DNA from: Squalus acanthias | Taxonomy: Eukaryota | Assembly (NCBI GenBank): GCA_030390025.1 | Contig: CM059432.1 | Location: 33,916,001-33,980,000 of the forward strand | Length of the DNA stretch: 64,000 nucleotides | Reading direction: 5' to 3' | Part shown: piece after piece, positions 21,565-45,960 of the stretch | How positions within the stretch are numbered: position 1 is the first letter of the stretch | How the letters are laid out: the number at the start of each line of letters is the position of its first letter | Position numbers and translations under genes: made by a program | The notes under the pieces: generated by a model | What the model was told of the DNA's origin: nothing | Database searches by the model: none | What the model saw: only the letters and a program-made list of their open reading frames with translations

Positions 21565-23588
21565 GGGGTTAAATTGGCTAACCCCCGAAAACGGGCATGG
21601 GGATCGCAGTACGCAATTAACCTGTTCCCGTTAAATTTGTGCTGCCTGCTGTTTTAATTGATTGCTGCATGCAGCCAGCGCTACCTGTTCTGTTCATTGG
21701 CTGCATGCATCAGCAACGGGCTCGATATTGCGAGTGGCTTGCACTACTTAAAGGCAGCCTGCACCTCGTAAAGGGATTGCTAGAAGTGGTGGGAGCTTTT
21801 TGAAAACTGAATCTGGGCTGTGATACTTTGAGGAATGGCTGAACATGCGAGAGATTGAGCACCAAGATTTTCCGACAATGCCCGAGCAGTCTTGGTGCAA
21901 GACATACATAAGAACCTAAGAACATAAGAAATAGGAGCAAGAGTAGGCCATTCGGCCCTTCGAGCCTGCTCCGCCATTCAATGAGATCATGGCTGATCTT
22001 CTGCATCAATTCCATTCACCGGCCCTATCGCCATATCCCTTGATGCCCTTACCAGTCAGAAATCTATCGACTTCTGTTTTGAATATACCCAATGACTGAG
22101 CCTCCACAGGCCTCTGGGGTAGAGAATTCCAAAGCTTCACCACCCTCTGTGTGAAGAAATTTCTTCTCATCTCAGTCCTGAATGGCCTACCCTTTATCCT
22201 GAGGCTGTGGCCCCTGGTTCTAGACTCCCCAGCCAAGGGAAACATTCTCCCAGCATCCACCCTATCAAGCCCTGTAATGATTTTGTATGCTTCAATGAGA
22301 TCCCTCTCATTCTTCTGAATTCAAGAGAATACAGGCCTAGTTTACTCAATCTCTTCTCATACGACAGTCCCGCCATCCCAGGAATCCTTAGGTAATGAGA
22401 TCAAAATTGTACACAGTACTCCAGGTGTGGTCTGACCAAGGCCCTATATAATTGGAGTAAGACTTCTTTACTCCTGTACTCAAATCCTCTTGTAATGAAG
22501 GCCAGCATACCATTTGCCTTCCTAATGGCTTGCTGCACCTGCACATTCACTTTCAGTGATTCATGTACAAGGGCACCCAGGACCCTTTGAGCATCTGCAT
22601 TCCCCAATCTTTCACCATGTAGGAAATACTCTGCCTTTCTGTTTTTTCTATCAAAGTGGGTAACTTCACATTTATCCACATTATATTCCGTCTGCCATGT
22701 TCTCGCCCACTCACTGAGCCTGTCGAGATCCCCTTGCAACCTCTTCACATCCTCTTCACAACTGACACTGCCACCTAGCTTTGTATCATCAGCAAATTTG
22801 GAAATGTTACATTTAGTCCCCTCATCCAAATCATTGATATAGATTGCGAATAGCTGGGGCCCAAGGGCTCCTTGAGGTACCCCACTAGTCACAGCCTGCC
22901 ATCCTGAAAAAGACCCGTTTATCCCTACTCTTTGTTTTCTGTCTGTTAACCAATTCTCAATCCATGCTAGTATATTACCCCCAATTCCATGTGCCCTAAT
23001 TTTGTTCACCAACCTCTTGTGTGGGACCTTATCGAAGGCCTTCTGAAAATCCAAATACACCACATCTACTGGTTCCCCTTTGTCTACTCCACTAGTTATA
23101 TCCTCAAAGAACTCCAATAGGTTTGTCAAACAGGATTTCCCTTTCATAAATCCATGTTGACTCTGCCCAATCTTACTATTAGTTTTTAAGTGCCCAGTTA
23201 TTGCAGCCATTATAATAGATTCCAGATTTTTCCCAACTACTGATGTGACGCTAACAGGTCTGTAGTTCCCCGTTTTCTCTCTCCCTCCTTTCTTAAATAG
23301 CAGGGTTACATTTGCTATCCTCCAATCTGCAGGAACCATTCCAGAATCTATAGAATTTTGGAAGATGACAACCAATGCGTCCACTATACCAATGGCCAAA
23401 TCTTTCAAAGCCCTAGGATGTAGGTCATCCGTTCCTTGGGATTTATCGACTTTTAGTCCCATTAATTTTGCTAGTACTGTTTTATTACTAATAATAATTT
23501 CTTTAAGTTCCTCATTCTCACCACACCCTTGGTTTTCTCGTATTTCTGGGAGGTTTTCTGTGTCTTCCTCCGTGAAGACAGAAACAGA

Positions 23589-24481
23589 GGGGGAGAAATT
23601 CAGTATCGCCCCATTTGGGGCGCAATTATCGGCCGGGCACAAAGATTAGCGCCTGGCGCTAATTATCGCCACTGACTGCAAACTTGACTTTTATCGCCCC
23701 TGGAGGTGATTGCAACGCTAAATCAGGCGCTTCACACCTGTCTTAAGGTGCAAAGGCCGAGGAGCGAGGCGCTACCTCAGAGCGCTGGCGAAGCTCATGT
23801 AATGTCAGTCAGCAATGGAACACACACACAATGGCACGGGCCAGTTCTTAAAGGGGATGGTTAATCTTGCTTTCCATCCACATCCTGCTCATTGCAGCCT
23901 TGAATCTCGGCCTGGAGAGACCTGCACATCAAATCTGCTGGAAAGAACAATGGAGAGTACCAGGCAAAGAGCTCAGAGTGCAGCCCCCACAGTCTCTTCT
24001 AAATCGATACAAGGAATGGCAAATCAAAATGAACCTGCAAAGTGCTGCTCAGTCCCCGAAACTCCTTCACACAACGTTGAATCTCTCCAGAAGTCTCTCC
24101 CTCTCTCTCTCAGAATGCGTAGTTCAAAAATGGCACCAACAATAAAAGGCAGGAAGCGGTCACCTTTAAATAGCGCTCCCCCTTTCCCTTCATGACTGCA
24201 GAACGCTCCCCTCAACCTGTCGTTGCTAGCGTCAGGCGGTAAGGCAGAGGGCGCCACTCAATATCCGCTCCGGGGCGATACCGGGGCGTTGCGTACTCGA
24301 CTGACGTCACGATCTGCTGGTGCAGGAGATCGTGGCAGTAGTGTTTAGCGCCGCCGCAAAATGTCTAGTTAATTTTGCGAGCGGCGCAAACTTCGCCGCG
24401 CCTGGGCGCCAGATGCTTTGCGCCCCATTAGTGCCCTCTTAAGGCGCTAACGGGAGGCGCAACCAACTGAATTTTTCCCCC
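23589..24481. mobile_element. Harbinger-A-family MITE, copy 1 (893 bp)
   Basis: TIRs GGGGGAGAAATTCAG / CTGAATTTTTCCCCC with flanks AGA/AAA. It interrupts CR1 codons NKYF|VSVFTEED. Near-identical core to copies 2 and 3. Confidence 0.93.
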
Positions 24482-24761
24482 AAAGTATTTATTTAATTTC
24501 GCTGCCATTTCTTCATTCCCCATTATAAATTCTCCCGTCTCTGACTGTAAAGGACCTACATTTACCTTCGCCAGTCTTTTCCTTTTCACATACCTATAGC
24601 AGCTTTTACAATCCATTTTTATATATTATAGTTTGTGCTCATATTCCATTTTCCCTTTCTTTATCAATTTCTTGGTCCCCCTTTGCTGATTTCTAAAAAG
24701 ATCCCAATCCTCAGGCTGATCACTTTTTCTGGCAACTTTATAAGCTTCCTCCTTTGACTTT

Positions 24762-25652
24762 GGGGGAGAAATTCAGTATCGCCCCATTTGGGGCGCAATT
24801 ATCGGCCGGGCACAAAGATTAGCGCCTAGCACTAATTATCGCCACCAACTGCAAACTTGACTTTTATTGCCCCTGGAGGTGATTGGAGCACTAAATCAGA
24901 CGCTTCACACCTGTCTTAAGGCGCAAAGGCCGAGGAGTGAGGCGCTACCTCAGAGCGCTGGCAAAGCTCATGTAATGTCAGTCAGCAATGGAACACACAC
25001 ACAATGGCACGGGCCAGTTCTTAAAGGGGATGGTTAATCTCACTTTCCATCCACATCCTGCTAATTGCAGCCTTGAATCTCGGCCTGGAGAGACCTGCAC
25101 ATCAAATCTGCTGGAAAGAACAATGGAGAGTACCAGGCAAAGAGCTCAGAGTGCAGCCCCCACAGTCTCTTCTAAATCGATACAAGGAATGGCAAATCAA
25201 AATGAACCTGCAAAGTGCTGCTCAGTACCCAAAACTCCTTCACACAACGTTGAAACTCTCCAGAAGTCTCTCTCTCTCTCTCTGAATGCGTAGTTCAAAA
25301 ATGGCACCAACAATAAAAGGCAGGAAGCGGTCACCTTTAACTAGCGCTCCCCCTTTCCCTTCATGACTGCAGAACGCTCCACTCAAACTGTCGTTGCTAG
25401 CGTCAGGCGGTAAGGCAGGGGGCGCAACTCAATATCCGCTCCGGGGCGATACCGGGGCGTTGCGCACTCGACTGACGTCATGATCTGCCGGCGCAGGAGA
25501 TCGTGGCGGTAGTGTTTTGCGCCGCCGCAAAATGTCTAGTTAATTTCGCGAGCGGCGCAAACTTCGCCACGCCTGGGCGCTAGATGCTTTGCGCCCCATT
25601 AGCGCCCTCTTAAGGCGCTAACGGGAGGCGCAACCAACTGAATTTTTCCCCC
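24762..25652. mobile_element. Harbinger-A-family MITE, copy 2 (891 bp)
   Basis: Same TIRs and body as copy 1, same orientation. Flanks TTT/AAT give no clean TSD. Confidence 0.93.
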
Positions 25653-28387
25653 AATTTCTTTTGTTAGCCATGGTTGGATCACTTTTCCTTTTGGGTTTTT
25701 ATGCCCTAGAGGAATATATGTTTGTTTCAAATTATGCATTATTTCCTTGAATGTTAGCCATTGTATGTCCACCTTCATACCTTTTAGTGTAGTCTCCCAA
25801 TCTACCATGGCCAACTTGTCCCTCATTCCCTTGTAGTTTCCTCTGTTTAGATTGAAGACCTTAGTTTCAGATTGGACTACATCACTCTCAAACTTAATGT
25901 AAAATTCAATCATATTATGGTCACGTGTCCCTGAAGGCCCCTTTACCACAAGATTATTGATTAGCCCTTTCTCATTACACAGTACCAGATCCAGAATAGT
26001 CTGTTCCCTGGTTGGTTCCTCCACATACTGATGCAGGAAACCATCTCGCATGCATTCCAAGAATTCGTCCTCCGCACCATTAGTGGTAATTTGATTTGCC
26101 CAGTCAATATGTAGATTAAACTCCCCCATGATTACCGTATTGCCCTTGTTACATGCACTTCTAATTTCTTGATTGATACTGTGCCCTACATTACCACTAC
26201 TGTTTGGTGGCCTATACACAACTCCCACCAATGTTTTCCTCCCTTTGCTGTTTCTTAGCTCCACCCAAACTGATTCCAGTTCTACATCACGATCTGCCGA
26301 GCCAAGATCTTTTATCTCTACCGTACCGATCTCATCCCTTATTAACAGAGCTATGCCACCTCCTTTTCCTTTTTGTCTGTCCTTCCTAAATGTTGAGTAC
26401 CCTGGAACATTCAGTTCCCAGCTTTGGTTACCCTGCAACCATGTCTCTGTAATGGCAATTACATCATACCCATTTACTTCTATTTGTGCCATTAATTCAT
26501 CCACTTTGTTGCGAATGCTACATGCATTTAGATAAAGTGCCTTCAAATTTGCCTGTTTAATATTTTTCTGCGCTTTGACCCTCTTTACTGTTGGCCTGTT
26601 TACGTTTACGTGAAGAGGAGAGACATCCTGTATCCGCAGTGGGGCAGGAGGTCCTCGAGACATATGCTCAGGAGGTAGTGGGAAGAAGTAGTGGCAGAGG
26701 TCAATGCCAGGAGTGGAGCTCCAAGAACATGGATGGGGTGCAGGAAGAAGTTTAACGATCTGGCATGAGTTGTCAAGGAGAGTGAGTTCATCTTCAAATG
26801 GCATTTCCTACCAACTGCACCAGTAGCCTCATCCACTGCTCAATTCATTACATCCCCATCACCCACCTACCAACAAGCTCTATCAATCAGTACTCAACTC
26901 TTCAATCATATACTTTACCTCACCCTCACACGCTTAGCACTGTTGAAAGCCTCACACCCACAACTCACAGCTTGCACACACTGGCAGCTATTCAACCACG
27001 ACAGCCACATCATCCAAACATATTGCAGGACATTCATTGACACACTTCCCTCTTTCTTGCAGGAGAAGGTGGTGCATAACAGGAGGCAGCAGGAAGGAAC
27101 TGGAGAAGGACAGGCGTGCCTGCATGTTTTAACCCCCATGGAGTAAACAGTGCTGGCCATCATGGGACGGGCCATTGCTGAGGTCATGGCCACTTGAGGG
27201 ATTGCTGATGAGGATATCTGCATACCAAAACCTCCTTCTCTCTTCCTACTTCACCCTCATCCCACAATCTCTTCTGACTCACAAGTTGCAGATGGTGTAA
27301 GCACACACTCAAAACAACCCAACCCTTGTCCCTTTTTCATTTCAAATACCCAAGAACTGGAACCTTCCCAGTCAGAGGAAGAGGAAGAAGCCAGTGAAGG
27401 TGAAGACACACTGTCACGATCTTACACTTGCAGCCACCAGATCAGAGACTGACACTGTGCATATTTTAGAGGCTAGGATGGAGTAGGGAGTGAGTAGTTG
27501 TGAGACACCAGGCACAAGTGCTCAGGAACCAGTGTCGGGGGAAAGGATAGCGCAGGTACCAGCTCGCCAGAGGCACACTAGCTCTGCTGCAGAGGTGACA
27601 GATGAAGACTTTGATGGACGAGGCTACAAAAGAACGCTGATGGGTGTATGTAACAAAATGCTTATGGTACTGGAAAGCCTACCAGAAAGCCTGTGCACAA
27701 TGTCAAGGAGCATGGAGGAGTTCAGCACCAACTTGGAACAGGGCTTTGCGCAGAGCTTGGAGCCCATCCTTTCCAACATGAAATGGGTGGTCACCTCCAT
27801 CAGCACACCTGTGGAACCTATCATGATGCAAGGACTGATGGCCGATGTCACAGCTTCTATTGCAGCACAATAGACTGCTGCCATCATGGCTCTGGATACC
27901 ACTGTTCAAAGGAGCTTCCAGGCTTCACAGCAGTCCATCAATCTGTTCTCCAATAGAGCAATAGGATTGCTAAGGCGCCACCCCGGGAGAGAGGCAGTGA
28001 CTACAGTGAACACAAACCCGCTGTCCTCCCTTAGGATGAGTGCCTCAATGAGTGCAGATCGGAACAGAGTGTTAAGCTGCGAGTTTGGTGAGTGAGGGAG
28101 TAAATCTTAAAGGTTAATCTCTTATTTTTATAAATTCTAGTCTTGTGTGCATGCAATTAGCATTTAAATTTACTGTTTCAAGTTTTAAGTTTCTTCCAGG
28201 CTTGGGCAGGGCTAAGCAAGCTCTGTGCTGGAGAGCAGGTGAGAGTACTTAATTAATTAAGTGGTCTAATCAGGTTCTGTAACTGCCAGAGAGCTCACTT
28301 ATTTAAATCTCAGCAGTATAAATAAGGGAGGCTAGAGTGCAGTTTGTCACAGAGTGCAGATCGGAACAGAGTGTTAAGCTGCGAGTT

Positions 28388-28500
28388 GAGTGAGTGAGTG
28401 AGTGAGTGAGTGAGTGAGTGAGTGAGTGAGTGAGTGAGTGAGTGAGTGAGTGAGTGAGTGAGTGAGTGAGTGAGTGAGTGAGTGAGTGAGTGAGTGAGTG
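28388..28500 (+). repeat. (GAGT)n microsatellite, about 28 units, inside the CR1 5' UTR
   Basis: Directly visible. It explains the spurious SLTH-repeat ORFs. Confidence 0.97.
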
Positions 28501-28727
28501 GTTCCTTTCTTTTTCCATCTTTGTCAGCTTCCACGAGAGCAGGAGCTAAAAAGTTGCACAAGAGGGGACAGAGAACCAGCGGTGAGTATTTCTACAGTAT
28601 TTCTACATTCTTGTCATTAAAGTAAAAGTAAGGTCTCTAGTTTAGAGTAACTAGTGTTTAAAGGGAAGTAAGGTCCCTAGTATATTTAATATTCTTTAAT
28701 TTAAAGGGAGTAAATTAAGTGTAGGAC

Positions 28728-29679
28728 ATGGCAGGGCAGCTCGGCAGTGTGGAGTGCTCCTCCTGCGCTATGTTGGAAGTCAGGGACAATTTAGGTGTCC
28801 AGGGTGAACACATGTGCAGGAAGTGTCTCCGGCTGCAGCTACTCGAAATCCACGTTTCGGAGCTGGAGCTGTGGCTGGAGTCACTGTGGAGCATCCACGA
28901 AGCTGAGATCTTCGTGGATAGCACGTTTAACAAGGCTGGTCACATCGCAGGAAAAGAGTGCACAGGCAGACAGGGAATGGGTGACCACCAGACAGAGTAA
29001 AAGAACTAGGAAGGTAGTGCAGAAGTCCCCTGCGTCCATCTCCCTCTCTGACAGATTTTCCATTTTGGATACTGATGGGGGAGATAGTTTCTCAGGGGAA
29101 TGCAGCAAGAGCCAAGTCCATGGCACTACAAGTGGCTCAGCTGCACAGGAGGGGAGGAAAAAGAGTGGGAGAGCAATAGTGATAGGGGTTTCTATCGTAA
29201 GGGGAACAGATAGATGTTTCTGTGGCCACAGACGTGACTCCAGGATGGTATGTTGCCTCCCTGGTGCCAGGGTCAAGGATGTCACTGAACGGCTGCAGGG
29301 CATTCTGAAGGGGGAGGGCGAACAGTCAGAGGTCGTAGTTCACATTGGTACCAACGACATGGGTAGAAAGAGGGATGAGGTCATGCAACAAGAATTTAGG
29401 GAGCTAGGTAGCAGATTAAAAAGCAGGACCTCAAAGGTTGTAATCTCTGGATTACTCCCGGTGCCACGTGCTAGTGCATATAGGAATAGGAGGATAGAGC
29501 AGATGAATGCGTGGCTAAAGAGTTGGTGCAGGAGGGAGGGCTTTAGTTTCCTGGATCACTGGGTCTGCTTCTGGGGAAAGTGGGACCTGTACAAGTCTGA
29601 TGGATTGCACCTGAACCGGAACGGGACCAACATCCTTGCGGGGAGGTTTGCTAGTACTGTTGGGGGGGGTTTAAACTAA
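28728..29679 (+). pseudogene. CR1 ORF1: N-terminal Cys cluster (CSSC...CRKC) and SGNH/GDSL-like esterase domain; one frameshift near 28935
   Basis: ORFs 28728-29000 and 28795-29679 carry IG(D/V)SIVR, HIGTND and DGLHLN. The minus-strand copy reads through the frameshift (FNKVVTSQ). Confidence 0.9.
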
Positions 29680-32604
29680 CTTGGCAGGGGGATGGGATAT
29701 GGAGTGGAGCTATAGTAGGGGGTGATGCACAGCCAAATATAGAGGAAAAAACAAGTCAGCCTGGAAGGCAGGGCAAATATGTAACGGCACAAGGGAGTAT
29801 GGCAAGGCTGGTTGGCATTTATTTTAATGCAAGGAGTCTTGCGAGTAAGACAGATGAATTGAAGGTGTTGATGAACACATGGGAGTATGATATTGTTGCT
29901 ATCACAGAGACATGGTTGAGGGTGGGGCAGGACTGGCAGCTCAATATTTCGGGGTATAGGATCTTCAGGCGAGACAGAGGGGGGGTGTAAAAGAGGAGGG
30001 GGTGTCGCAATATTAATCAAGGAGTCAATTACTGCTGTAAGGAGGGTTGATATCTTAGCAGGTTCCTCTAATGAGGCCATATGGGTAGAACTTAAGAACA
30101 AAAAGGGGGCATGCACTTTGCTGGGAGTGTACTATAGGCCTCCAAACAGTCAGGGGGAGATAGAGGAACAGATATGTAAGCAAATCTCAGAGAAGTGTAG
30201 AAATAATAGGGTAATAATAGTAGGGGATTTCAACTTCCCCAATATTAGCTGGGATAGTCAGAGTGTGAAAGGCTTAGAGGGTGCAGAATTCTTAAAGTGC
30301 ATCCAGGAGAGCTTTTTGAGCCAGCATGTAGAAAGTCCTATAAGAGAGGGGGCGGTACTGGACCTAATTCTAGGGAATGTAGCCGGGCAAGTGGTAGAAG
30401 TGTTAGTAGGAGAGCATTTTGGTGACAGTGACCATAATTCGATGAGATTTAAGGTAATCATGGAAAAGGACAAAGATGGACCGGAAATAAAGGTTCTAAA
30501 TTGGGGGAAGGCCGATTTTAATATGATAAGGCAGGATCTGGCCAAAGTGGACTGGGATCAGCTACTTGTAGGAAAATCCACATCAGAGCAGTGGGAGTCT
30601 TTCAGAAAGGAAATAGAGAGAGAACAAAGGCAACATGTTCCCGTAAAGGTCAAGGGTGGGACCACCAAGCCCAGGGAATCCTGGATGTCAAGGGATATAC
30701 GAGAATGGATTAGGAAAAAAAGGGAGGCTTTTGGCAGATACAAAGGACTAAAAACAGTGGAAGCCCTAGAGGAGTATAGAAAGTGCAGGGGGGTACTTAA
30801 AGAAATTAGGAGAGCAAAGAGGGGGCATGAAATAACACTGGTGGGCAAAATAAAGGAAAATCCCAAGGTGTTTTATAAGTATATTAAGGGCAAGAGGATA
30901 ACCAGGGAAAGAGTATGGCCCATTAGGAACCAAAGTGGCAATCTGTGTGTAGAGCCAGAAGATGTAGGCGGGATTTTAAATGAATATTTTGCATCTGTGT
31001 TCACTATGGAGAAGGACGATGTAGGCATAGAAATCAGGCAGGGGGATTGTGATATACTTGAATAAATTAGTATTGAGAAGGAGGAGGTACTAGCGGTTTT
31101 AGCAGGCTTAAAATTGGATAAATCCCCAGGCCCAGACGAGATGTATCCCAGGCTGCTGTGTGAGGCAAGGGAGGAGATTGCAGGGGCTCTGACACAAATT
31201 CAGAACCTCTCTGGCCACAGGGGAGGTGCCAGAGGACTGGAGGACAGCTAACGTAGTATCATTATTCAAGAAGGGTAGTAGGGATAAAACAGGGATTTAC
31301 AGGCCAGTGAGCATAACATCAGTGGTAGGGAAATTATTGGAAAAAATTCTGAGGGACAGAATTAGTCTCCACTTGGAGAGGCAAGGACTAATCAAGGATA
31401 GTCAGCATGGCTTTGTCAGGGGAGATCATGTCTAACCAATTTGAATGAATTTTTCGAGGGGGTGACTAGGTGTGTGGATGAGGGTTGTGCAGTTGATGTA
31501 GTCTACATGGACTTCAGTAAGGCTTTTGAAAAAGTCCCACATGGGAGACTGGTCAAGAAGGTAAGAGCCCATGGGATCCAGGGCAATTTGGCACATTGGA
31601 TCCAAAATTGGCTTAGTGGCAGGAGGTAGAGGGTGATGGTCGATTGTTTTTGTGACTGGAAGCCTGTGTCCAGTGGTGTACCGCAGGGATTGGTGCTGGG
31701 TCCCTTGCTGTTTGTAGTGTACATTAATGATTTAGATATGAATGTAGGAGGTATGATCAGTAAGTTCACAGATGACACAAAAATTGGTGGAGTGGTAAAT
31801 AGCGAGGAGGGAAGCCTCAGGCTACAGGACGATATAGACGGGTTGGTCAGAATGGCAGAACAGCGGCAAATGGAATTTAACCCTGAAAAGTGTGAGGTGA
31901 TGCATTTTGGGAGGACTAACAAGGCAAGGGAATACACAATGAATGGTAGGACCCTAGGAAGGACAGTGGATCAGAGGGACCTTGGTGTGCATATACATAG
32001 ATCCCTGAAGGCAGCAGGACAGATAGATAAGGTGGTTAAAAAGGCATATGGGATACTTACCTTCATTAGCCGAGGCATAGAATATAAGAGCAGGGAGGTT
32101 ATGATGGAGCTGTATAAAACATTAGTTAGGCCACAGCTGGAATACTGTGTGCAGTTCTAGTCGCCACACTATAGGAAGGATGTGATTGCATTGGAGAGGG
32201 TGCAGAGGAGATTCACCAGGATGTTACCTGGGCTGGAGCGCTTCAGCTATGAAGAGAGACTGGACAGGCTGGGGTTGTTTTCCTTAGAGCAGAGAAGGCT
32301 GAGGGGGGACCTGATTGAGGTGTACAAAATTATGAGGGGCATAGATAGGGTAGATAGAAAGGAACTTTTCCCCTTAGTAGAGGGGTCAATAACCAGGGGG
32401 CATAGTTTCAAGGTAAGGGGCAGGAGGTTTAGAGGGGATTTGAGGAAAATCTTTTTCACCCAGAGGGTGGTTGGAATCTGGAACTCACTGCCTGAAAGGG
32501 TGGTAGAGGCAGGAACCCTCCCAACATTCAAGAAGCATTTAGATGAGTACTTGAAACGCCATAGCATACAAGGCTACGGACCAAGTGCTGGAAAATGGGA
32601 TTAG
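29670..32604 (+). pseudogene. CR1 ORF2 (endonuclease plus reverse transcriptase), disrupted by several stops and frameshifts
   Basis: YFNARSL, AITETWL, GVYYRPP, GDFNFP, SDHN, MDFSKAF, GVPQG, KFTDDTK and RGHSFK across ORFs from 29799 to 32604. Confidence 0.92.
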
Positions 32605-32676
32605 AATAGACAGGGCTTGATGGCCGGCGCGGACATGATGGGCCGAAGGGCCTCTTTCTGTGCTGTATAACTCTAT

Positions 32677-33568
32677 GGGGGAAAAATTAGGTCGCGCCCC
32701 ATTTGGGGCGCAAATATCGTCTGGACGCAAATATTAGCGCCTGGCGCTAATTATCGCCACTGACTGGAAACTTCACTTTTACCGCCCCGGGAGGTGATTG
32801 GAGCGCTAAATCAGGCGCTGCACACCTGTCTTAAGGCGCAAAGGCCAAGGAGTGAGGCGCTAACTCAGAGCGCTGGCGAAGCTCATGCAATGTCAGTCAG
32901 CAATGGAACACACACACAATGGCACGGGCCAGTTCTTAAAGGGGATGGTTAATCTTGCTTTCCATCCACATCCTGTTCATTGCAGCCTTGAATCTCGGCC
33001 TGGAGAGACTTGCACATCAAATGTGCTGGAAAGAACAATGGAGAGTACCAGGCAAAGAGCTCAGAGTGCAGCTCCCACAGTCTCTGCTAAATCGATACAA
33101 GGAATGGCAAATCAAAATGAACCTGCAAAGTGCTGCTCAGTACCCAAAACTCCTTCACACAACGTTGAATCTCTCCAGAAGTTTCTCCCTCTCTCTCTCA
33201 GAATGCGTAGTTCAAAAATGCCACCAACAATAAAAGGCAGGAAGCGGTCACCTTTAAATAGCGCTCCCCCTTTCCCTTAATGACTGCAGAACGCTCCCCT
33301 CAACCTGTCGTTGCTAGCGTCAGGCGGTAAGGCAGGGGGCGCCACTCAATTTCCGCTCCGGGGCGCCACAAGGGCGTTGCACCATGGAATGATGTCACAA
33401 TCTGCGCGCGCAGGTGGTCGCAGCGGTAAAGTTTAGCGCCGGGCACAATGTCTAGTTAAGTTCCCGAGCGGCACAAACATCGCTGCGCCCGGGCGTTAGC
33501 GGCTTTGCGCCCCATTAGCGCCCTCTTAAGGCGCTAACGGGAGGCGCAACCAACTGAATTTTTACCCC
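32677..33568. mobile_element. Harbinger-A-family MITE, copy 3 (892 bp), inserted in the CR1 tail
   Basis: TIRs GGGGGAAAAATT / AATTTTTACCCC with flanks TAT/CAT. Its ends are the reverse complement of the element A ends. Confidence 0.93.
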
Positions 33569-34120
33569 CATGACTCTATGGGCTGGATTTTGCCAGGCCC
33601 GAGGAGGAGGGAATGGAGGCGTGTGTGGTGTTAAAATAGCAAAATGGCGGGCGGGCCCGACCCCGCCTCCATCCCGCCTCCGAGCAATTTTCCCCAATGC
33701 GTGGTTTTTGATCCCGTCTCCGTCCCGCCTCCAAGAGGTGGGATAGGACTTTAAGGGGTAAAAATTCACTTGGTTGCGCCTCCCGTTAGCGCCTTAAGAG
33801 GGCGCTAATGGGGCGTTAAGCCGCTAACGCCCGGGCGCAGCGATGTTTGCGTCGCTCGAGAACTTAACTTGAGATTGTGCGGCGGCGCTAAAACTTACCG
33901 CTGCGACCACCTGCGCGCGCAGATTATGACGTCATTCCATGGTGCAACGCCCTTGGGGCGCCCCGGAGCGGAAATTGAGTGGCGCCCCCTGCCTTACCGC
34001 CTGGCGCTTCCAACGACCGGAAGACTGGAACGCTATCAATCGCTGTGGGGCTGGGGGGGGCGCTATTTAAAGGGGGCCTCTTCCTGTCTTTTATTGTTGG
34101 TCGACATTTATGCACCACTC

Positions 34121-34122
<2 letters not shown>

Positions 34123-34161
<39 letters not shown>
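34123..34161 (+). repeat. (AG)n microsatellite in the transposase A leader
   Basis: Directly visible. A shorter (CT)n equivalent is present in the MITEs. Confidence 0.9.
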
Positions 34162-34164
<3 letters not shown>

Positions 34165-34264
34165 CTACATTGACTCAACGCTTTGTGAGGTAGTTTTGCC
34201 TATTCATCCTAACTTTGTTGCTACTTTAGTTGCTGTCCCTCATTACTTTTCTGGCGAAGAGAAT

Positions 34265-35421
34265 ATGGGGGCTGCACTGATTGGGGGCGTCGTCCTGCTC
34301 CAGCTGAATCGGAGGATACAGAGACGCAGACAGAGAGTGGCAATGATGGCCAGACGGAGGAGGGCCATCAGGCGCATGTACAGGAGAGCTTACCCTCCCA
34401 GGGTATATCGTGAACAGCTCGCCTACATCCATATGTCCGAGGAGCTGTGTTTACGAAGGCTGCGATTCAGCAAGGAGGTGGTCACTGAGCTCTGCCAGCT
34501 GCTGCAGCCAGATCTGCAGCCTCAGCTGAGGTCCAGGACGTCTCTGTCGGTGGCAGTGAAGGTCACAGTGGCTTTGAACTTCTACGCCACTGGCTCATTC
34601 CAAGCTGCTGTTGGGGACCTTGCCAATATCTCCCAGTTTGCGGTGCATCGCTGCATCCGGCAGGTCACCAATGCCCTCTTCAGAAGGAGACGAGAGTTCA
34701 TCTCTTTCCCTATGACCCCAGACAAGCAGCGTGACCGTGCTCTGGGCTTTGCGAGGGTAGCGGGCTTCCCCATGGAGCAGGGCGCCATTGACTGCACGCA
34801 TGTGGCTTTGCGTGCTCCGCGTGAGAATGCAGAGGAATTCAGGAACAGAAAGGGGTTCCATTCCTTGAATGTCCAGTTGGTCTGTGACCACAGACAGGTG
34901 ATACTCGCTGTCATTGCCCACTATCCTGGCAGCTGCCACGATGCTTTTATCCTGCGCCAGACTACTGTGGCAGAAGTTTGAGGCACCGCATCAGCCAGTT
35001 GGTTGGCTTCTCGGGGACAAGGGGTACGCATTGAGCACCTGGCTGATGACACCGCTCCGTACGCCAAACACCCCTGCTGAGCTGCGGTACAATGAAAGCC
35101 ATCAAGCAACCAGGAACATTATTGAGCGCACAATCGGCGTGCTGAAACAACGGTTCCGCTGTCTGGACCATTCCGAGGAGCCCTGCAGTACTCGCTGAGC
35201 AAGTATCGAACTTCGTAGTCGTGTGCTGCATGTTGCACAACATGGCAATCCTCAGGACCCAGCCAATGCCACCAGGCCTTGTAGCACCACCAGAGGAGGA
35301 GGAGGAAGAGGAGGAAGAGGACGAGGACGATGATCATCAGCAGCACCAAGGCGGGAGGGCGGCCCACAATGGTCAAACTGCAAGGGCCGTCCGTCAACGA
35401 CTAATAGCAAGCCGCTTCTAG
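34265..35421 (+). pseudogene. Harbinger A DDE transposase (HARBI1-like family), frameshifted near 34978 and 35178-35198
   Basis: [79 protein letters not shown] and an acidic tail. Confidence 0.93.
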
Positions 35422-35834: not shown

Positions 35835-37655
35835 CTACTTTTTGCCCTTCGAGGGTGATCTCCTTCCCTTGCGCACTTCCCCCCTTCTAACCCTACTGCT
35901 CCTCCGTAATGGGACCTCAGTGGCTGCAGCAAGGCTGGTGGAAGGCTGCTGCTCGTCAGACCCTGACACTGCAGATGCCCCTGAAGGACAGCCTCGACCA
36001 CTTCTGGGCCTGGAGGGCCCGGCTGCAGACTGCACCAACTCTGCATGGGCGGCAGCAGTCTGTCCTACAGGCGGTGGCAAGTGCAGTGGAGAAGTGACAG
36101 TGTTGGCAGCAGGAATGCTGTCATCGAGAGAGAGGACAGCAACTCCCTGCTCGCCCGACACACTGGCACTCCCACGGGGCAGCACTTCAGCATCCGGAGC
36201 AATCTGCCGGAGAACAGATTGCTGGCCTGCTGCGGCGCGGTGACAGCCCCGGGGACATGTGCACGAACCATCGAGGTTGGCAGCAGTCTGTGCTCGCGTG
36301 GCCTCCATCTGAGTCTGTATGAGAGCAGTCAGAGATGGGATCACGGCAGCCAGTGACTGAATTGCAGCACTAAGCGTTAGTGTGGCATCCGCCTGTGCTA
36401 CAGCGAAGTGCTCCACACTCCTTGCCAGTGACTCAATGCATTCGGGCACCCTTCCCACTGCACCCATGAGCTCAGTGTGCATGCCCACCGCCTGGGTGTT
36501 CATTTCTGCAATCAGCCGCTCCTCCTCTGCGTCCATTGCAGTAGGAGTGTCTGGCATACTCTCCCTCTGGGGAGAAGGCCCCCGTTCTTCCCTACCCCCC
36601 CCATGGTGTTGCTGCAGCCCGCTGGGTCCTGGAGCTTCACCCTCATCAGCCCCTTCCCCCCTGCTCCCCTCCGGGGAAGGCGTGTTCCCAGTGTGGGCAT
36701 GGGCTTTCTCGGGAGAGGGTGGCACTGATGCTCTGGCTTCCTCTTCCTCCTCAGCTGCAGCATCACTCCCAGTGGCAGCTTCAGGGCCCGTCTCCTCAGC
36801 TGGTGAATCACCATCTGAAAGCAGGGAGGTACAAGAGTGGCTTTAGCGTGAGGACAGGGTGGCAGTAAGGGAGGAATAAGTGCAGCGAGTTAGCAAGTTG
36901 GATTGAAAGTGTCAAAGGCTGGTGTTGTGAGGGACAAGTGGAAGGACAGAGGACAAAAAGGTGATGACCTTACCATTGCTGTCCAGAACGGGGTCGGCGT
37001 CTCCAGTGGCGACGGGACCGATCACCCGGCTTGCCACAATCCTGTGGACGCGCTCCTCAAGATCGCTGAGGGGTTGCAGCTGAGGCCGCCCGCCACCTGT
37101 CCGTTGCTGCTGTCTCCTATTATGAGCCAGCTTAGCCTGCAAGAAAAAGGACAGCATCTGAGTAAATATACAGCCATGGTCTTGCCTGATGTGCCTCCCA
37201 TAGGTGAATAGCCCTTACTGGATGCAGCCATGGTCTTGCCTGATGTGCCTCCCATAGGTGAATAGCCCTTACTGTATGCAAAGTGTGGAATGTGTGTGTG
37301 TGTGTTTGATGAAAGGGCCATAGGTGTTGGATGAGTGTTGTGCATTGTGGTTTTAAGACCCTCTGGCCATAGAGTGAGGTTGAGATGGAGGGATGGAGAG
37401 GTATTGAGAAAAAGCCACTCACCCTGACGACCCGAGTGAGGTCGTTGAACTTTGTGGCATTGAGTATGGGTCCTGGGCACCATGCTCCTGGAGGAGACGC
37501 TCTGAGCCACCTCCCTCCACACTCTTCTGAACTCGCGTGGCAAAGGCCTCCTGCCACTCTCAGGGAACAGCATACATCGTCTGCGCTCCACTGCGCCAAC
37601 CAGAGCATCCAAGGCCCGCTCGGTGAAGCGATGAGCGCGTTCTCACCCTCTCCAT
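35835..37655 (-). pseudogene. Harbinger A Myb/SANT-like protein, three exons (37655-37423, 37136-36974, 36814-35835), with frameshifts in exon 1
   Basis: RFTERALDALV...W.EVAQSV...RT..QC.K-KFNDL. GT-AG sites (AGG|GTGAGT, TTGCAG|GCT, ATG|GTAAG, TTTCAG|AT) keep the frame into ORF 35835-36725. Confidence 0.85.
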
Positions 37656-38369: not shown

Positions 38370-39617
38370 ATGGGAACCATTTATTTCCTTTCCTCCTGAA
38401 CATCAGATGAGGACGAACACCAGCCACGGCAGCAGCAGAACCCTGAACACCAGCAGCACCAACTGCAGGAGCAACAGCAGGAGCTCCAAGCTGCTGCTCA
38501 CCCACCTGAAGCTGCACAGGCCAGAAGGTGCCAGCGCATGGAAGCACGTCAGCACAGGAGATACCCCCAAAACAGGGTCAACAGACAGAGGATCAGCTAC
38601 CTCAGCATGACTGAGCAGCAGTGCCAAAGGCGGCTACGACTTTTGCGAGAGATAGTGGGTGACATCTGCGCAATGGTGCAGCAAGACCTGGAGCCCAGAG
38701 GAGCAGGTGGACACCCCTTACCAGTGCCCGTCAAAGTCACCACTGCTCTCAACTTTTTTGCCTCAGGCTCATTCCAGGGATCAGCAGCAGACATCAGCGG
38801 CATCTCCCAGGCGGCCGCACACACTTGCATCACGCAGGTAACCGATGCCCTCTTTGCCATCGCGCACAATCACATCCATTTCTCCAAGGATCAAGCCAGT
38901 GTAACTGCGCGGGCGGTTGGGTTTGACAATCTGGCAGGCTTTCCCAGGGTGCAGGGCGTCGTTGACTGCACACATGTGGCCCTTAAGGCACCCCATCACA
39001 ATCCATGTATTTTTGTCAACCGCAAGGGCTTCCACTCCCTCAACGTACAGCTGGTGTGTGACCACAAGAAGGAAATTTTGCATGTTTGCGCCAAGTACCC
39101 TGGCAGTTGCCATGACTCCTTCATCCTGCGCCAGTCTAGTGTGCCTCCGCTCTTCAGTCCGCCAGACCAACTTCACGGATGGCTACTTGGAGACAAGGGC
39201 TATCCCCTGAAGACGTGGCTAATGACGCCGTTTAGGAGCCCATCCAACGAAGCTGAGGAGCGCTACAACTACAGCCACATTTCCACCTGATCCATAATCG
39301 AGCAAACCATCGGCTTGCTGAAGATGCGCTTCAGATGCCTGGATAGATCAGGTGGAGCCCTGCAATACTCAGCAGCCAGGGTCTCCAGAATCGTTGTGGC
39401 TTGCTGTGCACTTCACATGGCACAGCGTCATGGCTTGCAGATTCCTGAGGACCAAGTGGCTCCTCACATATCCTCCTCAGATGAGGAGGAGGAGGAGGAG
39501 GAGGAGGAGGGCGAAAACGCTCATCTTGCAGAGGCGCATCAACCAGCGGCAGCAGTATGCGAGAACATTGCTGCCCGGGATGCAAGGAATGCACTCATCT
39601 TGGCCAGATTTGCTTAG
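38370..39617 (+). pseudogene. Harbinger B DDE transposase, single reading frame with two in-frame TGA stops (38397, 39288)
   Basis: ATG 38370 is in frame with ORFs 38538-39290 and 39315-39617. Motifs GVVDCTH, NRKGFHS, PGSCHDS, LGDKGY and IEQTIGLLKMRFRCL. Confidence 0.93.
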
Positions 39618-41883: not shown

Positions 41884-42174
41884 TTTGCCTCCAGGTCCCT
41901 CTCACAGCAAAGGACAAAAGGTTGGCAGTCTGCAGAAGAAGCAAGGCTTCTTGCAGACCTTAAATGCAGCAGCAATGATGACGTCATCGGAGGCGACTTT
42001 CAGACTGACAAAACTAATTGGGCCATGGGTTCCCACACGCTGGAACTCAAGTGCTCAATTCGGGGAAACTCTAATAATTCTCCCACTGCGACTTGGAGTC
42101 GGGTGGCTAACACGAAAAGCAGATTAAACGACCCCAGCCCGCCCCAATGACAAAATCGAGCCCAATGACTCTAT

Positions 42175-44693
42175 TAACATCCAGGGTTCCCTGGACATGT
42201 TGGTCTCACCCTTGACCTTTACTGGAACATGTTGGCGCTGTACTCTCTCTATTTCCTTTCTGAATGACTTCCACTGCTCTGATGTGAATTTTCCTACAAG
42301 TAGCTGATCCCAGTCCACTTTGGCCAGATCCTGCCTTATCATATTAAAATCAGCCTTCCCCCAATTTAGAACATTTATTTCCGGTCCATCTTTGTCCTTT
42401 TCCATGACTATCTTAAATCTCACCGAATTATGGTCACTGTCACCAAAATGCTCTCCTACTAACACTTCTACCACTTGCCCGGCTACATTCCCTAGAATTA
42501 CATCCAGTACCGCCCCCTCTCGTGTAGGACTTTCTACATGCTGGCTCAAAAAGCTCTCCTGGATGCACTTTAAGAATTCGGCACCCTCTAAGCCTTTTAC
42601 ACTCTGACTATCCTAGTTAATATTGGGGAAGTTGAAATCCCCTACTATTATTACCCTATTATTTCTACACTTCTCTGAGATTTGCTTACATATTTGTTCC
42701 TCTATCTCCCCCTGACTGCTTGGGGGCCTATAGTACACACCCAGCAAAGTGCTTGCCCCCTTTTTGGTTTTAAGTTCTACCCATATGGCCTCATTAGAGG
42801 AACCTGCTAAGATATCATCCCTCCTTACTGCAGTAATTGACTCCTTGATTAATATTGCGACACTCCCTCCTCTTTTACACCCCCCTCTGTCTCGCCTGAA
42901 GATTCTATACCCTGCAATATTGAGTTGCCAGTCCTGCCCCTCCCTCAACCACGTCTCTGTGATAGCAATAATATCATACTCTCATCAACACCTTCAATTC
43001 ATCTGCCTTACTCGCAAGACTCCTTGCATTAAAATAAATGCCATCCAGCCTTGCCATACTCCCTTGTGCCGTTACATATTTGCTCTGCCTTCCAGACTGA
43101 CTTGTATTTTCCTCTATACTTGGCTGTGCATCATCCCCTACTATAGCTCCACTCCGTATCCCATCCCCCTGCCAAGTTAGTTTAAACCCCCCCCCAGCAC
43201 TAGCAAACCTCCCGCAAGGATGTTGGTCCCTTAAGGTTCAGGTGCAACCCGTCCGACTTTACAGGTCCCACCTTCCCCAGAAGCCGACCCAGTGATCCAG
43301 GAAACTAAAGCCCTCCCTCCTGCACCAACTCTTTAGCCAGGCATTCATCTGCTCTATCCTCCTATTCCTATACTCACCAGCACATGGCACCAGGAGTAAT
43401 CCAGAGATTACAACCTCTGCTTTTTAATCTGCTACCTAGCTCCCTAAATTCTTGTTGCAGGACCTCATCCCTCTTTCTACCCATGTCATTGGTACCAATG
43501 TGAACCACGACCTCTGACTGTTCGCCCTCCCCCTTCAGAATGCCCTGCAGCCATTCAGTGACATCCTTGACCCTGGCACCAGGGAGGCAACATACCATCC
43601 TGGAGTCACGTCTGCGGCCACAGAAACATCTATTTGTTCCCCTTACGATAGAATCCCCTAGCACTATTGCTCTCCCATTCTTTTTCCTCCTCTCCTGTGC
43701 AGCTGAGCCACTCATAGTGCCACGGACTTGGCTCTTGCTGCATTCCCCTGAGAAACCATCTCCCCCATCAGTATCCAAATTGGAAAATCTGTCGAGAGGG
43801 GAGATGGACCCAGGGGACTTCTGCACTACCTTCCTAGTTCTTTTACTCTGTCTGGCGGTCACCCATTCCCTGTCTGCCTGTGCACTCTTTACCTGCGATG
43901 TGACCACCTTGTTAAACGTGCTATCCATGAAGATTTCAGCTTCGTGGATGCTCCACAGTGACTCCAGCCACAGCTCCAGCTCCAAAACGCAGATTTCGAG
44001 TAGCTGCAGCTGGAGCCACTTCCTGCACATGTGTTCGCCCTGGACACCTAAAGTGTCCCTGACTTCCCACATAGCACAGGAGGAGCACTCCACACTGCCG
44101 AGCTGCCCTGCCATGTCCTACCCTTAATTTACTCCCTTTAAATTAAAGAATATTAAATACACTAGGGACCTTATTTTCCTTTAAACACTACTTACTCTAA
44201 ACTAGAGACCTTACTTTTACTTTAATGACTGGAATGTAGAAATACTGTAGAAATACTCACCACTGGTTCTCTGTCCCCTCTTGTGCAGCTTTTTAGCTCC
44301 TGATCTCCTGGAAGCTGACAAAGATGGAAAAAGAAAGGAACACCGCCACTCACCAAACTCATAGCTTAACACTCTGTTCCAATCTACACTCTGTGACAAA
44401 CTGCACTCTAGCCTCCCTTATTTATACTGCTGAGATTTAAATAATTGAACTCTCTGGCAGTTACAGAACCAGATTAGACCACTTAATTAATTAAGTACTC
44501 TCACCTGCTCTCCAGCACAGAGCTTGCTTAGCCCTGCCCAAGCCTGGAAGAAACTTAAAACTTGAAACAGTAAATTTAAATACTAATTGCAAGCACACAA
44601 GACTAGAATTTATAAAAATAAGAGATTAACCTTTAAGATTTACTCCCTCACTCACCAAACTCGCAGCTTAACACTCTGTTCCGATCTGCACTC
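42175..44693 (-). mobile_element. CR1 LINE of the same family as 28050-32676, with 5' UTR, ORF1 and EN intact but 3'-truncated
   Basis: ORFs 43374-44114, 42613-42948 and 42124-42549 are near-identical to the + copy proteins. Homology stops at REPWM, equivalent to about 30690. Confidence 0.94.
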
Positions 44694-44714
44694 TATTCTA
44701 TGATTCTATGATTC

Positions 44715-45424: not shown

Positions 45425-45960
45425 CCATCTCTTTTTGCCTGGATGACCTAGCCTCCTAGACCCTGGCACCAGGGAGGCAACATACCATCCTGGAGTCACG
45501 TCTGCGGCCGCAGAAACGCCTGTCTGCACCCCTCACTATTGAGTCTCCTACCACTATTGCCCTTCCACTCTTACTCCTCCCACCTTGTGCAGCTGAGCCA
45601 CCCACAGTGCCGTGAACTTGGCTCTGGCTGCACTCCCCAGAGGAACCGTCACTTTCACCGTTTTCCAACACAGAAAAACGGTTGTTGAGTGAGATGCACT
45701 CTGGGGCTTTCCTGACTACCTGCCTGCCCCCCCTTCTTCTGACTGGTGGTCACCCATTCCCTCTCTGGCTGCACTTTCTTAAGCTGCGAGGTGACCACAT
45801 CTAAAAATGTGCTATCCACGTAACTCTCAGCCTCGCGGATACACCGCAGTGCCTCCAGCTGACGCTCGAGTTCCGAAAACCAGATCTCAAGTTGGCCAAA
45901 CCGTTGGCACTTACTGCACATGTGGTCATCCTGACTGCAAGACACCTCACACCTTGCACA
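45425..45960 (-). mobile_element. CR1 ORF1 fragment of a diverged subfamily
   Basis: HMCSKC...ELERQLEALR and GRAIVVGDSIVRGADRRFCG...CCLPGARV. Confidence 0.85.

Follow-up and report, generated by a model that had tools for sequence, protein, structure and literature searches.

A conserved slippery heptamer at the end of ORF1 points to probable −1 ribosomal frameshifting in esterase-type CR1 retrotransposons

How is the second open reading frame (ORF2) of a CR1 long interspersed nuclear element (LINE) translated when the first (ORF1) closes upstream of it in another frame? The question is raised by a 64,000-nucleotide stretch of Squalus acanthias DNA (contig CM059432.1, positions 33,916,001 to 33,980,000; “the window”), which holds a near full-length but decayed CR1 copy (copy 1) with an SGNH esterase ORF1, then an APE endonuclease, then a reverse transcriptase (RT). 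ORF1 ends GGT TTA AAC TAA, which places the heptamer T_TTA_AAC at 29670-76 in the X_XXY_YYZ register and the stop codon at 29677-79. A sequence-only reading of the window had proposed this as a candidate −1 programmed ribosomal frameshifting (PRF) site, and its coordinates and frames were confirmed, as was its claim of an open −1 frame: this frame is open from 29655 to 29990, reads ..GFKLTWQGDG.., and has its first ATG at codon 44 (29799), followed by the start of the endonuclease. Comparison with related elements suggests that esterase-type CR1 LINEs probably express ORF2 at least partly via −1 PRF at the end of ORF1.

The window alone is weak evidence for such a signal, since canonical heptamers are common in it (3.1 per kb), its single open linker stretch of 40 codons has a shuffle P of about 0.08, and its two copies are alike. 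The sequence-only reading had counted a second copy (copy 2), on the minus strand, as an independent instance. The same junction is indeed present in copy 2, but its independence does not hold: the copies differ by 111 substitutions in 2167 aligned bases (5.1%), and ten identical junction bases are expected with P = 0.59 at this divergence. Copy 2, about 95% identical to copy 1, was therefore rejected as independent support. Because both copies are decayed, the question concerns the family and not these copies.

What argues that the junction is beyond chance is its conservation in distant lineages. DNA scans gave 74 loci, of which 28 end before the end of ORF1; the other 46 comprise 17 with a downstream endonuclease and 29 without. 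A heptamer was located where ORF1 ends in 13 of the 17 (12 from the scan itself, and L053 just beyond the span it covered); the background rate at which 37 nt hold a heptamer of any such kind is 0.09. Eleven of the 13 have TTTAAAC, L002 has GTTAAAC and L004 has GGGAAAC. Three CR1 ends that are cut before the endonuclease (L010, L013 and L024) also carry TTTAAAC; apart from these and L040, the loci without an endonuclease are uninformative. The stop codon directly follows the heptamer in 13 of the 16 heptamer-bearing loci. The −1 frame is open from heptamer to endonuclease in 12 of the 13 loci and in both window copies, and stays open for 973 codons in L002 and 930 codons in L004. Neither stops in the linker nor a changed frame offset was seen as the rule in the family. 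Shuffle tests of a linker open to the first Met gave 0 of 400 for L004 and P values of 0.018 for L006, 0.043 for L023, 0.083 for the window, 0.14 for L002 and 0.75 for L001.

Additional evidence came from the codons of the heptamer, which are conserved across lineages at synonymous sites. In a control using the same ORFs, TTA makes up 13% of Leu codons, AAC 92 of 215 Asn codons, and T 27.5% of third positions, so that the probability of T_TTA_AAC given x-L-N is 0.016 per lineage; T_TTA_AAC was found at 0 of 30 other Leu-Asn pairs in these ORFs. Taken over three more lineages with T_TTA_AAC (L001 of the sturgeon type, L023 and the bird group), the probability is about 4e-6, assuming saturation at synonymous sites. 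Judged by its sequence, L004 is the most telling case: ORF1 ends G-N with G_GGA_AAC, a Leu-to-Gly change that alters the residue yet retains the slippery pattern. U_UUA_AAC and G_GGA_AAC are among the most shift-prone heptamers, and G_UU(A) is described for equine arteritis virus (PMC5009743; this and the other papers cited here were available in part, and statements about them apply to those parts). In one esterase tree L002, L004 and L023 fall outside the supported vertebrate clade, and another tree leaves their placement unsettled; the window ORF1 clusters with shark and ray proteins (support 94/99). An esterase scan of viral contigs confirmed 0 of 13 stretches, a heptamer-G pattern scan of viral contigs gave no CR1 among the 80 loci listed, and none of five loci from GTDB genomes had a CR1 junction.

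Variation within the family was followed by aligning 6048 contig records of sequencing run X1 and 229 of run X15 to positions 29450-29990; rare variants are lost from such contigs, and of the 8 and 0 reads obtained from two raw-read runs none spanned the junction. No variant at 29670-75 is present among the best 40 of 94 variant rows from X1 and X15. At 29676 a C>T change, still a valid heptamer pattern, accounts for 0.3% of X1 depth and 45% of X15 depth. As the stop, nearly all X1 depth has TAA, and 62% of X15 depth has TAG. No indels are listed for X1 on 29450-29990; a single X15 contig shows deletions near the ATG. X15 also contains a sister subfamily whose divergence begins only past 29697, beyond the downstream G-rich box (G box) discussed below. 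The window's run of eight G ahead of the heptamer lacks conservation, with 29666 G>A common and upstream bases variable.

The proteins encoded on either side of the junction are consistent with this picture. The 120 ORF1 homologs listed come from sharks, rays, chimaera, frogs, turtles, sturgeon, hummingbird and others, and the named ones closest to the window copy belong to sharks and rays. The DGxH motif is present in 83 of the 120. Leu-Asn is C-terminal in 74 of these 83 and in 81 of the 120 overall, and the residues before it vary widely. In an AlphaFold model the last three ORF1 residues lie past the final helix, with a predicted local distance difference test score under 50. Two homologs with natural indels continue into the −1 frame (..FKLIWQGDG and ..FKLDRLGG), and the −1 frame alignment shows no variation at K2 and L3. 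From the ORF2 side, FKL is found upstream of the endonuclease in 33 of 112 proteins with a locatable endonuclease motif. These are mostly stork gene models from one genome, with others from ibis, crane, godwit, pintail and alligator and one artefact. A further list of 147 representative proteins, 112 of them with a locatable endonuclease motif, adds little, since few extend to the junction. One frog ORF1 ends RRALN and ORF2-frame proteins read QEGVKL, which would imply G_UUA_AAC if both belong to one family.

Natural in-frame proteins joining esterase, endonuclease and RT were also considered and rejected, the matches being spliced gene models of decayed copies and not natural fusions. Many bird gene models are chimeras spliced into the CR1 junction. 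Two shark-type CR1 ORF1 proteins filed under Pseudomonas and Proteus (P0007 and P0075) are probably contamination.

Published consensus sequences were covered through Supplementary Table 2 of PMC13343379, for the first 400 bases of each row and up to six places per search term. By our own placement, 17 of 23 motif matches in this part of the table lie at the end of ORF1, a count that has no denominator because the rows were found by searching for the motif itself, and in which row frames are unchecked. The rows with an ORF1-end match are AllMis, CroPor, AmiCal, AquCat, CalMil, HypSab, LatCha, PriPec, ScyCan, SquAca and AldAff, and in a PogVit row the heptamer is followed by TGA. We take the row labels to denote crocodilians, bowfin, frog, chimaera, rays, coelacanth and sharks. 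When other heptamer variants were sought in the same part of the table, the only ones at an ORF1 end were TTTAAAC with TGA or TGT.

If ribosomes do shift at the heptamer, a stimulator would be expected downstream. The sequence-only reading had noted a G-rich tract there without a clear pseudoknot. No pseudoknot is evident, as it said, but the tract is itself conserved in position: a run of at least four G starts at +11 in 11 of 15 sequences and at +8, +10 or +13 in three, and is absent in L023, against a background of 0.003-0.037 per 4-nt window. The codon before the G box encodes K, R, Q, L, S or V across loci, so the constraint looks to be at the nucleotide level. L023, the sole locus lacking the box, has a predicted hairpin from +11 (z −3.4), and L009 has a z of −2.3. 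A canonical stem-loop or pseudoknot 5-9 nt downstream was not found, though no pseudoknot-specific predictor was run. The G box would most likely be a protein-binding or weakly structured element, and not a pseudoknot; that it binds a protein is a hypothesis. Since nearby RNA structure, one defining feature of a canonical frameshifting cassette, was not found, the junction would be a gag-pol-like variant rather than a canonical cassette.

From this anatomy we infer slippage, a fusion product, its ratio and the roles of the stimulators as follows. Most ribosomes would decode UUA AAC, stop at the next codon and release the ORF1 protein (ORF1p). A minority would slip back one base, by tandem slippage of tRNA-Leu and tRNA-Asn to UUU AAA, possibly stimulated by the adjacent stop and the G box. 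The shifted ribosomes would bypass the stop out of frame and read through the linker, the endonuclease and the RT. The product would be a low-abundance fusion of ORF1p with the ORF2 protein (ORF2p), resembling Gag-Pol, possibly made alongside ATG-initiated ORF2p. The suggestion of the sequence-only reading that this LINE makes a fusion by frameshifting thus gains from the heptamer, its register and the open −1 frame in distant CR1 lineages, and from the variant heptamers, while staying conditional.

Several observations weigh against frameshifting, which is deduced from sequence. All sufficiently long loci but one have an in-frame ATG before the endonuclease; the window ATG has good context, and five loci have an ATG at codon 4-5. 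The pattern-preserving residue change is known from one contig, L004, and in L002 (G_UUA_AAC) P-site re-pairing would be weakened. The bird loci are interrelated and count as one lineage only. The adjacent stop is missing in 3 of the 16 heptamer loci, L053 is out of frame, and in L040 the heptamer is in register but the −1 frame closes after five codons, with no endonuclease downstream. The heptamer is missing in 4 of the 17 informative loci (L022, L031, L052 and L028), which are other esterase lineages that stand apart from the CR1 rows in the esterase tree and have ORF2 in the frame of ORF1. A test of the residue before the terminal Leu-Asn is weak, giving 2 of 81 when positions −6 and −7 are equally low. 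Some published consensus rows have no G box (PMC13343379). Over the 100 nt past the heptamer, 10 of 12 junctions show no stronger folding than shuffled sequence does, no distant pairing partner is shared at homologous positions, and a quadruplex is the predicted minimum-energy fold in only 4 of 18.

The explanation with which frameshifting has most directly to be compared is termination followed by re-initiation, in the style of SART1 or L1, where ribosomes would restart at a nearby ATG or non-AUG codon without making a fusion, and heptamer, stop and G box would together be a termination or re-initiation signal. Re-initiation is documented for SART1 (PMC3708506), and AUG-independent initiation is favoured for mammalian LINEs (PMC5009743). 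At the CR1 junction no classical stimulator was found, the window ATG has the A at −3 and G at +4 of a good start, and several bird-type loci have an ATG at codon 4-5, right after the stop, that no out-of-frame ATG precedes. The in-frame ATG that comes first is at codon 4-5 in bird-type L005, L009, L011, L015 and L026, at codon 44 in the window, at codons 19-90 in other loci, and past the first endonuclease motif in sturgeon-type L001. These positions argue against a single conserved ATG start, though re-initiation would be possible in most families. The overlapping stop-start codon of SART1 was not found, the in-frame ATG lying 120 nt downstream in the window and at differing codons among relatives. 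Re-initiation predicts neither the XXX-YYY pattern nor the G_GGA_AAC variant, and leaves the open frame upstream of distant ATGs (codons 44-90) unpredicted. It also fits poorly with L001, which has no ATG before the endonuclease motif, and with L023, which retains heptamer, hairpin and open frame without an adjacent stop. Up to six out-of-frame ATGs precede the in-frame ATG across loci, with four in the window linker before 29799 and four to six in the window, L004 and L030. On balance, we consider re-initiation unlikely to account for the junction.

Still less probable is that the heptamer is a by-product of protein constraint, whether on a Leu-Asn C terminus or on an F-K-L-x-x-x-G peptide. 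Such constraint would fit the terminal Leu-Asn of the 81 listed homologs and the invariant K2 and L3 of the −1 frame, but the codons are fixed at synonymous positions (compare the 0 of 30 control pairs), L004 alters the residue and retains the pattern, and the terminal residues are modelled as an unstructured tail. Moreover, for a −1 frame peptide to be conserved across the stop, ribosomes would in any case have to translate the junction. Splicing could instead supply an RNA for ORF2, joining donors in ORF1 or the 5′ untranslated region (UTR) to the AG of a TAG stop or to another acceptor close by; automated bird gene models do splice into the junction, and the 5′ UTR has donor-like sites. This too we regard as very improbable, because the AG is not conserved (the window and nearly all X1 depth have TAA as the stop, L030 and one consensus row TGA) and acceptor-like sites near the junction were sought by a simple pattern scan without success. 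There is similarly little chance that heptamer and G box are a non-decoding RNA or DNA signal for packaging, ribonucleoprotein assembly or transcriptional slippage. A G box that lacks a pairing partner might bind a protein, and eight G precede the heptamer in the window, but across lineages the motif keeps to the codon register and to one and the same −1 offset, and the upstream G run is not conserved.

Frameshifting at the CR1 junction would parallel −1 PRF in retroviral gag-pol and nidovirus ORF1a/1b: these systems share its heptamers (PMC5009743), which likewise close a structural ORF in register and are followed by an enzyme ORF in the −1 frame. The differences are that CR1 is a retrotransposon without long terminal repeats (non-LTR), has no protease, and has a G-rich box at +11 in place of a conserved stem-loop or pseudoknot 5-9 nt downstream. 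The spacer is 11-14 nt in arterivirus −2/−1 and cardiovirus −1 frameshifting (PMC5009743), similar to the start of the CR1 G run at +11; the arterivirus needs nsp1beta and a poly(C)-binding protein, whereas the CR1 box is G-rich and is not known to depend on a trans-acting factor. Among non-LTR elements, a frameshift is stated to be needed in Dictyostelium TRE5-A and TRE3-A of the L1 clade (PMC5911963) and in Drosophila HeT-A (PMC5009743), but these belong to other clades, have no esterase, and are not described in these sources as having a heptamer conserved across distant hosts. For Paramecium elements a +1 shift or readthrough has been suggested in the literature. SART1 and mammalian L1 resemble CR1 in having a bicistronic LINE RNA and needing ORF2 at a low level; they differ in using termination-reinitiation or AUG-independent initiation to make a separate ORF2p (PMC3708506, PMC5009743). 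Vertebrate canonical CR1 and ZfL2-1, whose esterase is PDB 4c1b, have the same order of esterase, APE and RT; canonical CR1 is described as two separate ORFs, and the L2-like esterase loci found here have no heptamer. Further comparison literature comprised PMC11835228, PMC3905857, PMC4120745, PMC5405496, PMC7175516 and PMC2734521.

No report of CR1 frameshifting was found by literature search, though the original CR1 descriptions and Repbase notes may mention an overlap. The words frameshift, slippery and translation do not occur in the available main text of a 2026 survey (PMC13343379), and the available part of PMC5009743 has no mention of CR1. The CR1 frameshift signal is thus probably, but not certainly, a new finding.

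Recoding may extend to other esterase retroelements. A same-frame ORF2 lies behind a TGA at L031:1682, L052:1326, L022:758, L039:744 and L044:1642, and in L028:3023-4005 ORF1 and ORF2 share one frame with no stop at all. TGA-CTA is present in L052 and L044, and TGA-CTG in L039; UGA-CUA is a readthrough context. In L031 the frame stays open as far as the endonuclease and has no Met ahead of the first motif, and L022 has a second stop. L022, L031 and L052, and probably L039 and L044, are candidates for in-frame UGA readthrough. We raise, tentatively and as somewhat doubtful, the broader view that recoding yields an ORF1p-ORF2p polyprotein in the whole class of esterase LINEs, by frameshifting in CR1 and by UGA readthrough in other lineages. 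The CR1 frameshift would then be ancient, and stimulated by a structure-free, protein-assisted G-rich box. The esterase would be tethered to the endonuclease and RT, as Gag is to Pol.

The coordinates of the CR1 features are collected below.

Table 1. CR1 features of the window that bear on the ORF1-ORF2 junction.
Feature	Positions	Strand	Remarks
CR1 LINE copy 1 (5′ UTR, esterase ORF1, APE-RT ORF2, short 3′ UTR)	28050..32677	+	Self-alignment with copy 2 from 28050; Pfam GDSL, Exo_endo_phos, RVT_1
ORF1, Cys-motif N terminus and SGNH esterase, end G-L-N-stop	28728..29679	+	One extra base near 28936 breaks the frame
Putative slippery heptamer U_UUA_AAC, X_XXY_YYZ register	29670..29676	+	Same or variant heptamer in 13/17 informative loci
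ORF1 stop codon, TAA, directly 3′ of heptamer	29677..29679	+	TAG or TGA in relatives
G-rich box (GGGGG-AT-GGG), candidate stimulator, from 11 nt past heptamer	29687..29696	+	Position kept across loci
Linker, only −1 frame open	29677..29798	+	Stops 0 / 4 / 1 in frames −1 / 0 / +1
First in-frame ORF2 ATG (A at −3, G at +4)	29799..29801	+	Start under the re-initiation model
ORF2 remnants, APE endonuclease and RT, with frameshifts and stops	29799..32604	+	
CR1 copy 2, about 95% identical, cut in ORF2	42174..44693	−	Alignment with copy 1
Heptamer and stop of copy 2	43177..43186 (heptamer 43186-43180)	−	

The domain assignments of copy 1 rest on Pfam matches to Lipase_GDSL_2 in ORF1 (E 5e-14; best solved relative 4c1b_A, E 7e-40) and to Exo_endo_phos and then RVT_1, in order, in ORF2. 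Its decay includes single extra bases near 28936 (ORF1) and 29979 (ORF2) and replacement of the GDS motif by GVS. The 3′ end has no poly-A and one short terminal unit at about 32670-77, which may match the CR1 tail. In the 5′ UTR, a 52-bp unit is duplicated, at 28050 and 28352, and 28387-28500 is a (TGAG)28 expansion that copy 2 lacks. The 5′ UTR also has three splice-donor-like sites on the plus strand, at 28088, 28239 and 28582, and, by eye, pyrimidine tracts ending in AG near 28199 and 28528. Similar donor-like words are carried by published shark CR1 5′ ends (PMC13343379 supplement), and the CR1 5′ UTR may be spliced.

The rest of the window consists of a 21-kb satellite followed by nested transposon fragments. 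The satellite array spans 4-21227, with about 485 copies of a 44-bp unit at 91% matches. An older CR1 ORF2, 35-55% identical and without an ORF1 junction, lies at 22009-26600 on the minus strand and is split by two copies of an insertion of about 900 bp, near 23590 and 24760 (by eye). The N-terminal half of an ORF1 from a more distant CR1 subfamily, 75% identical and ending before the junction, lies at 45454-45933 on the minus strand. A short tandem repeat at about 44695-44712 adjoins the 5′ end of copy 2; we take it to resemble the tail of a CR1 on the opposite strand. Transposases of the DDE_Tnp_4 type, together with a weak match to Myb/SANT, are found at 33809-34981 and 38400-39290 on the plus strand and at 37022-37642 on the minus strand, elements that are presumably PIF/Harbinger-like DNA transposons.

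How ORF2 is translated from a bicistronic LINE RNA is an open question (PMC3708506), and re-initiation is the route in the LINE cases studied. In most vertebrates, CR1-group elements dominate among the retrotransposons (PMC13343379). If frameshifting at the end of ORF1 is correct, canonical CR1 would use the retroviral gag-pol strategy, and its real ORF2 product would carry the esterase. Annotations of ORF2 that start from the first ATG would then be wrong or incomplete, and the design of CR1 retrotransposition constructs and of screens for “intact” copies would change. The junction would also add a deeply conserved metazoan case of −1 PRF, with an unusual stimulator.

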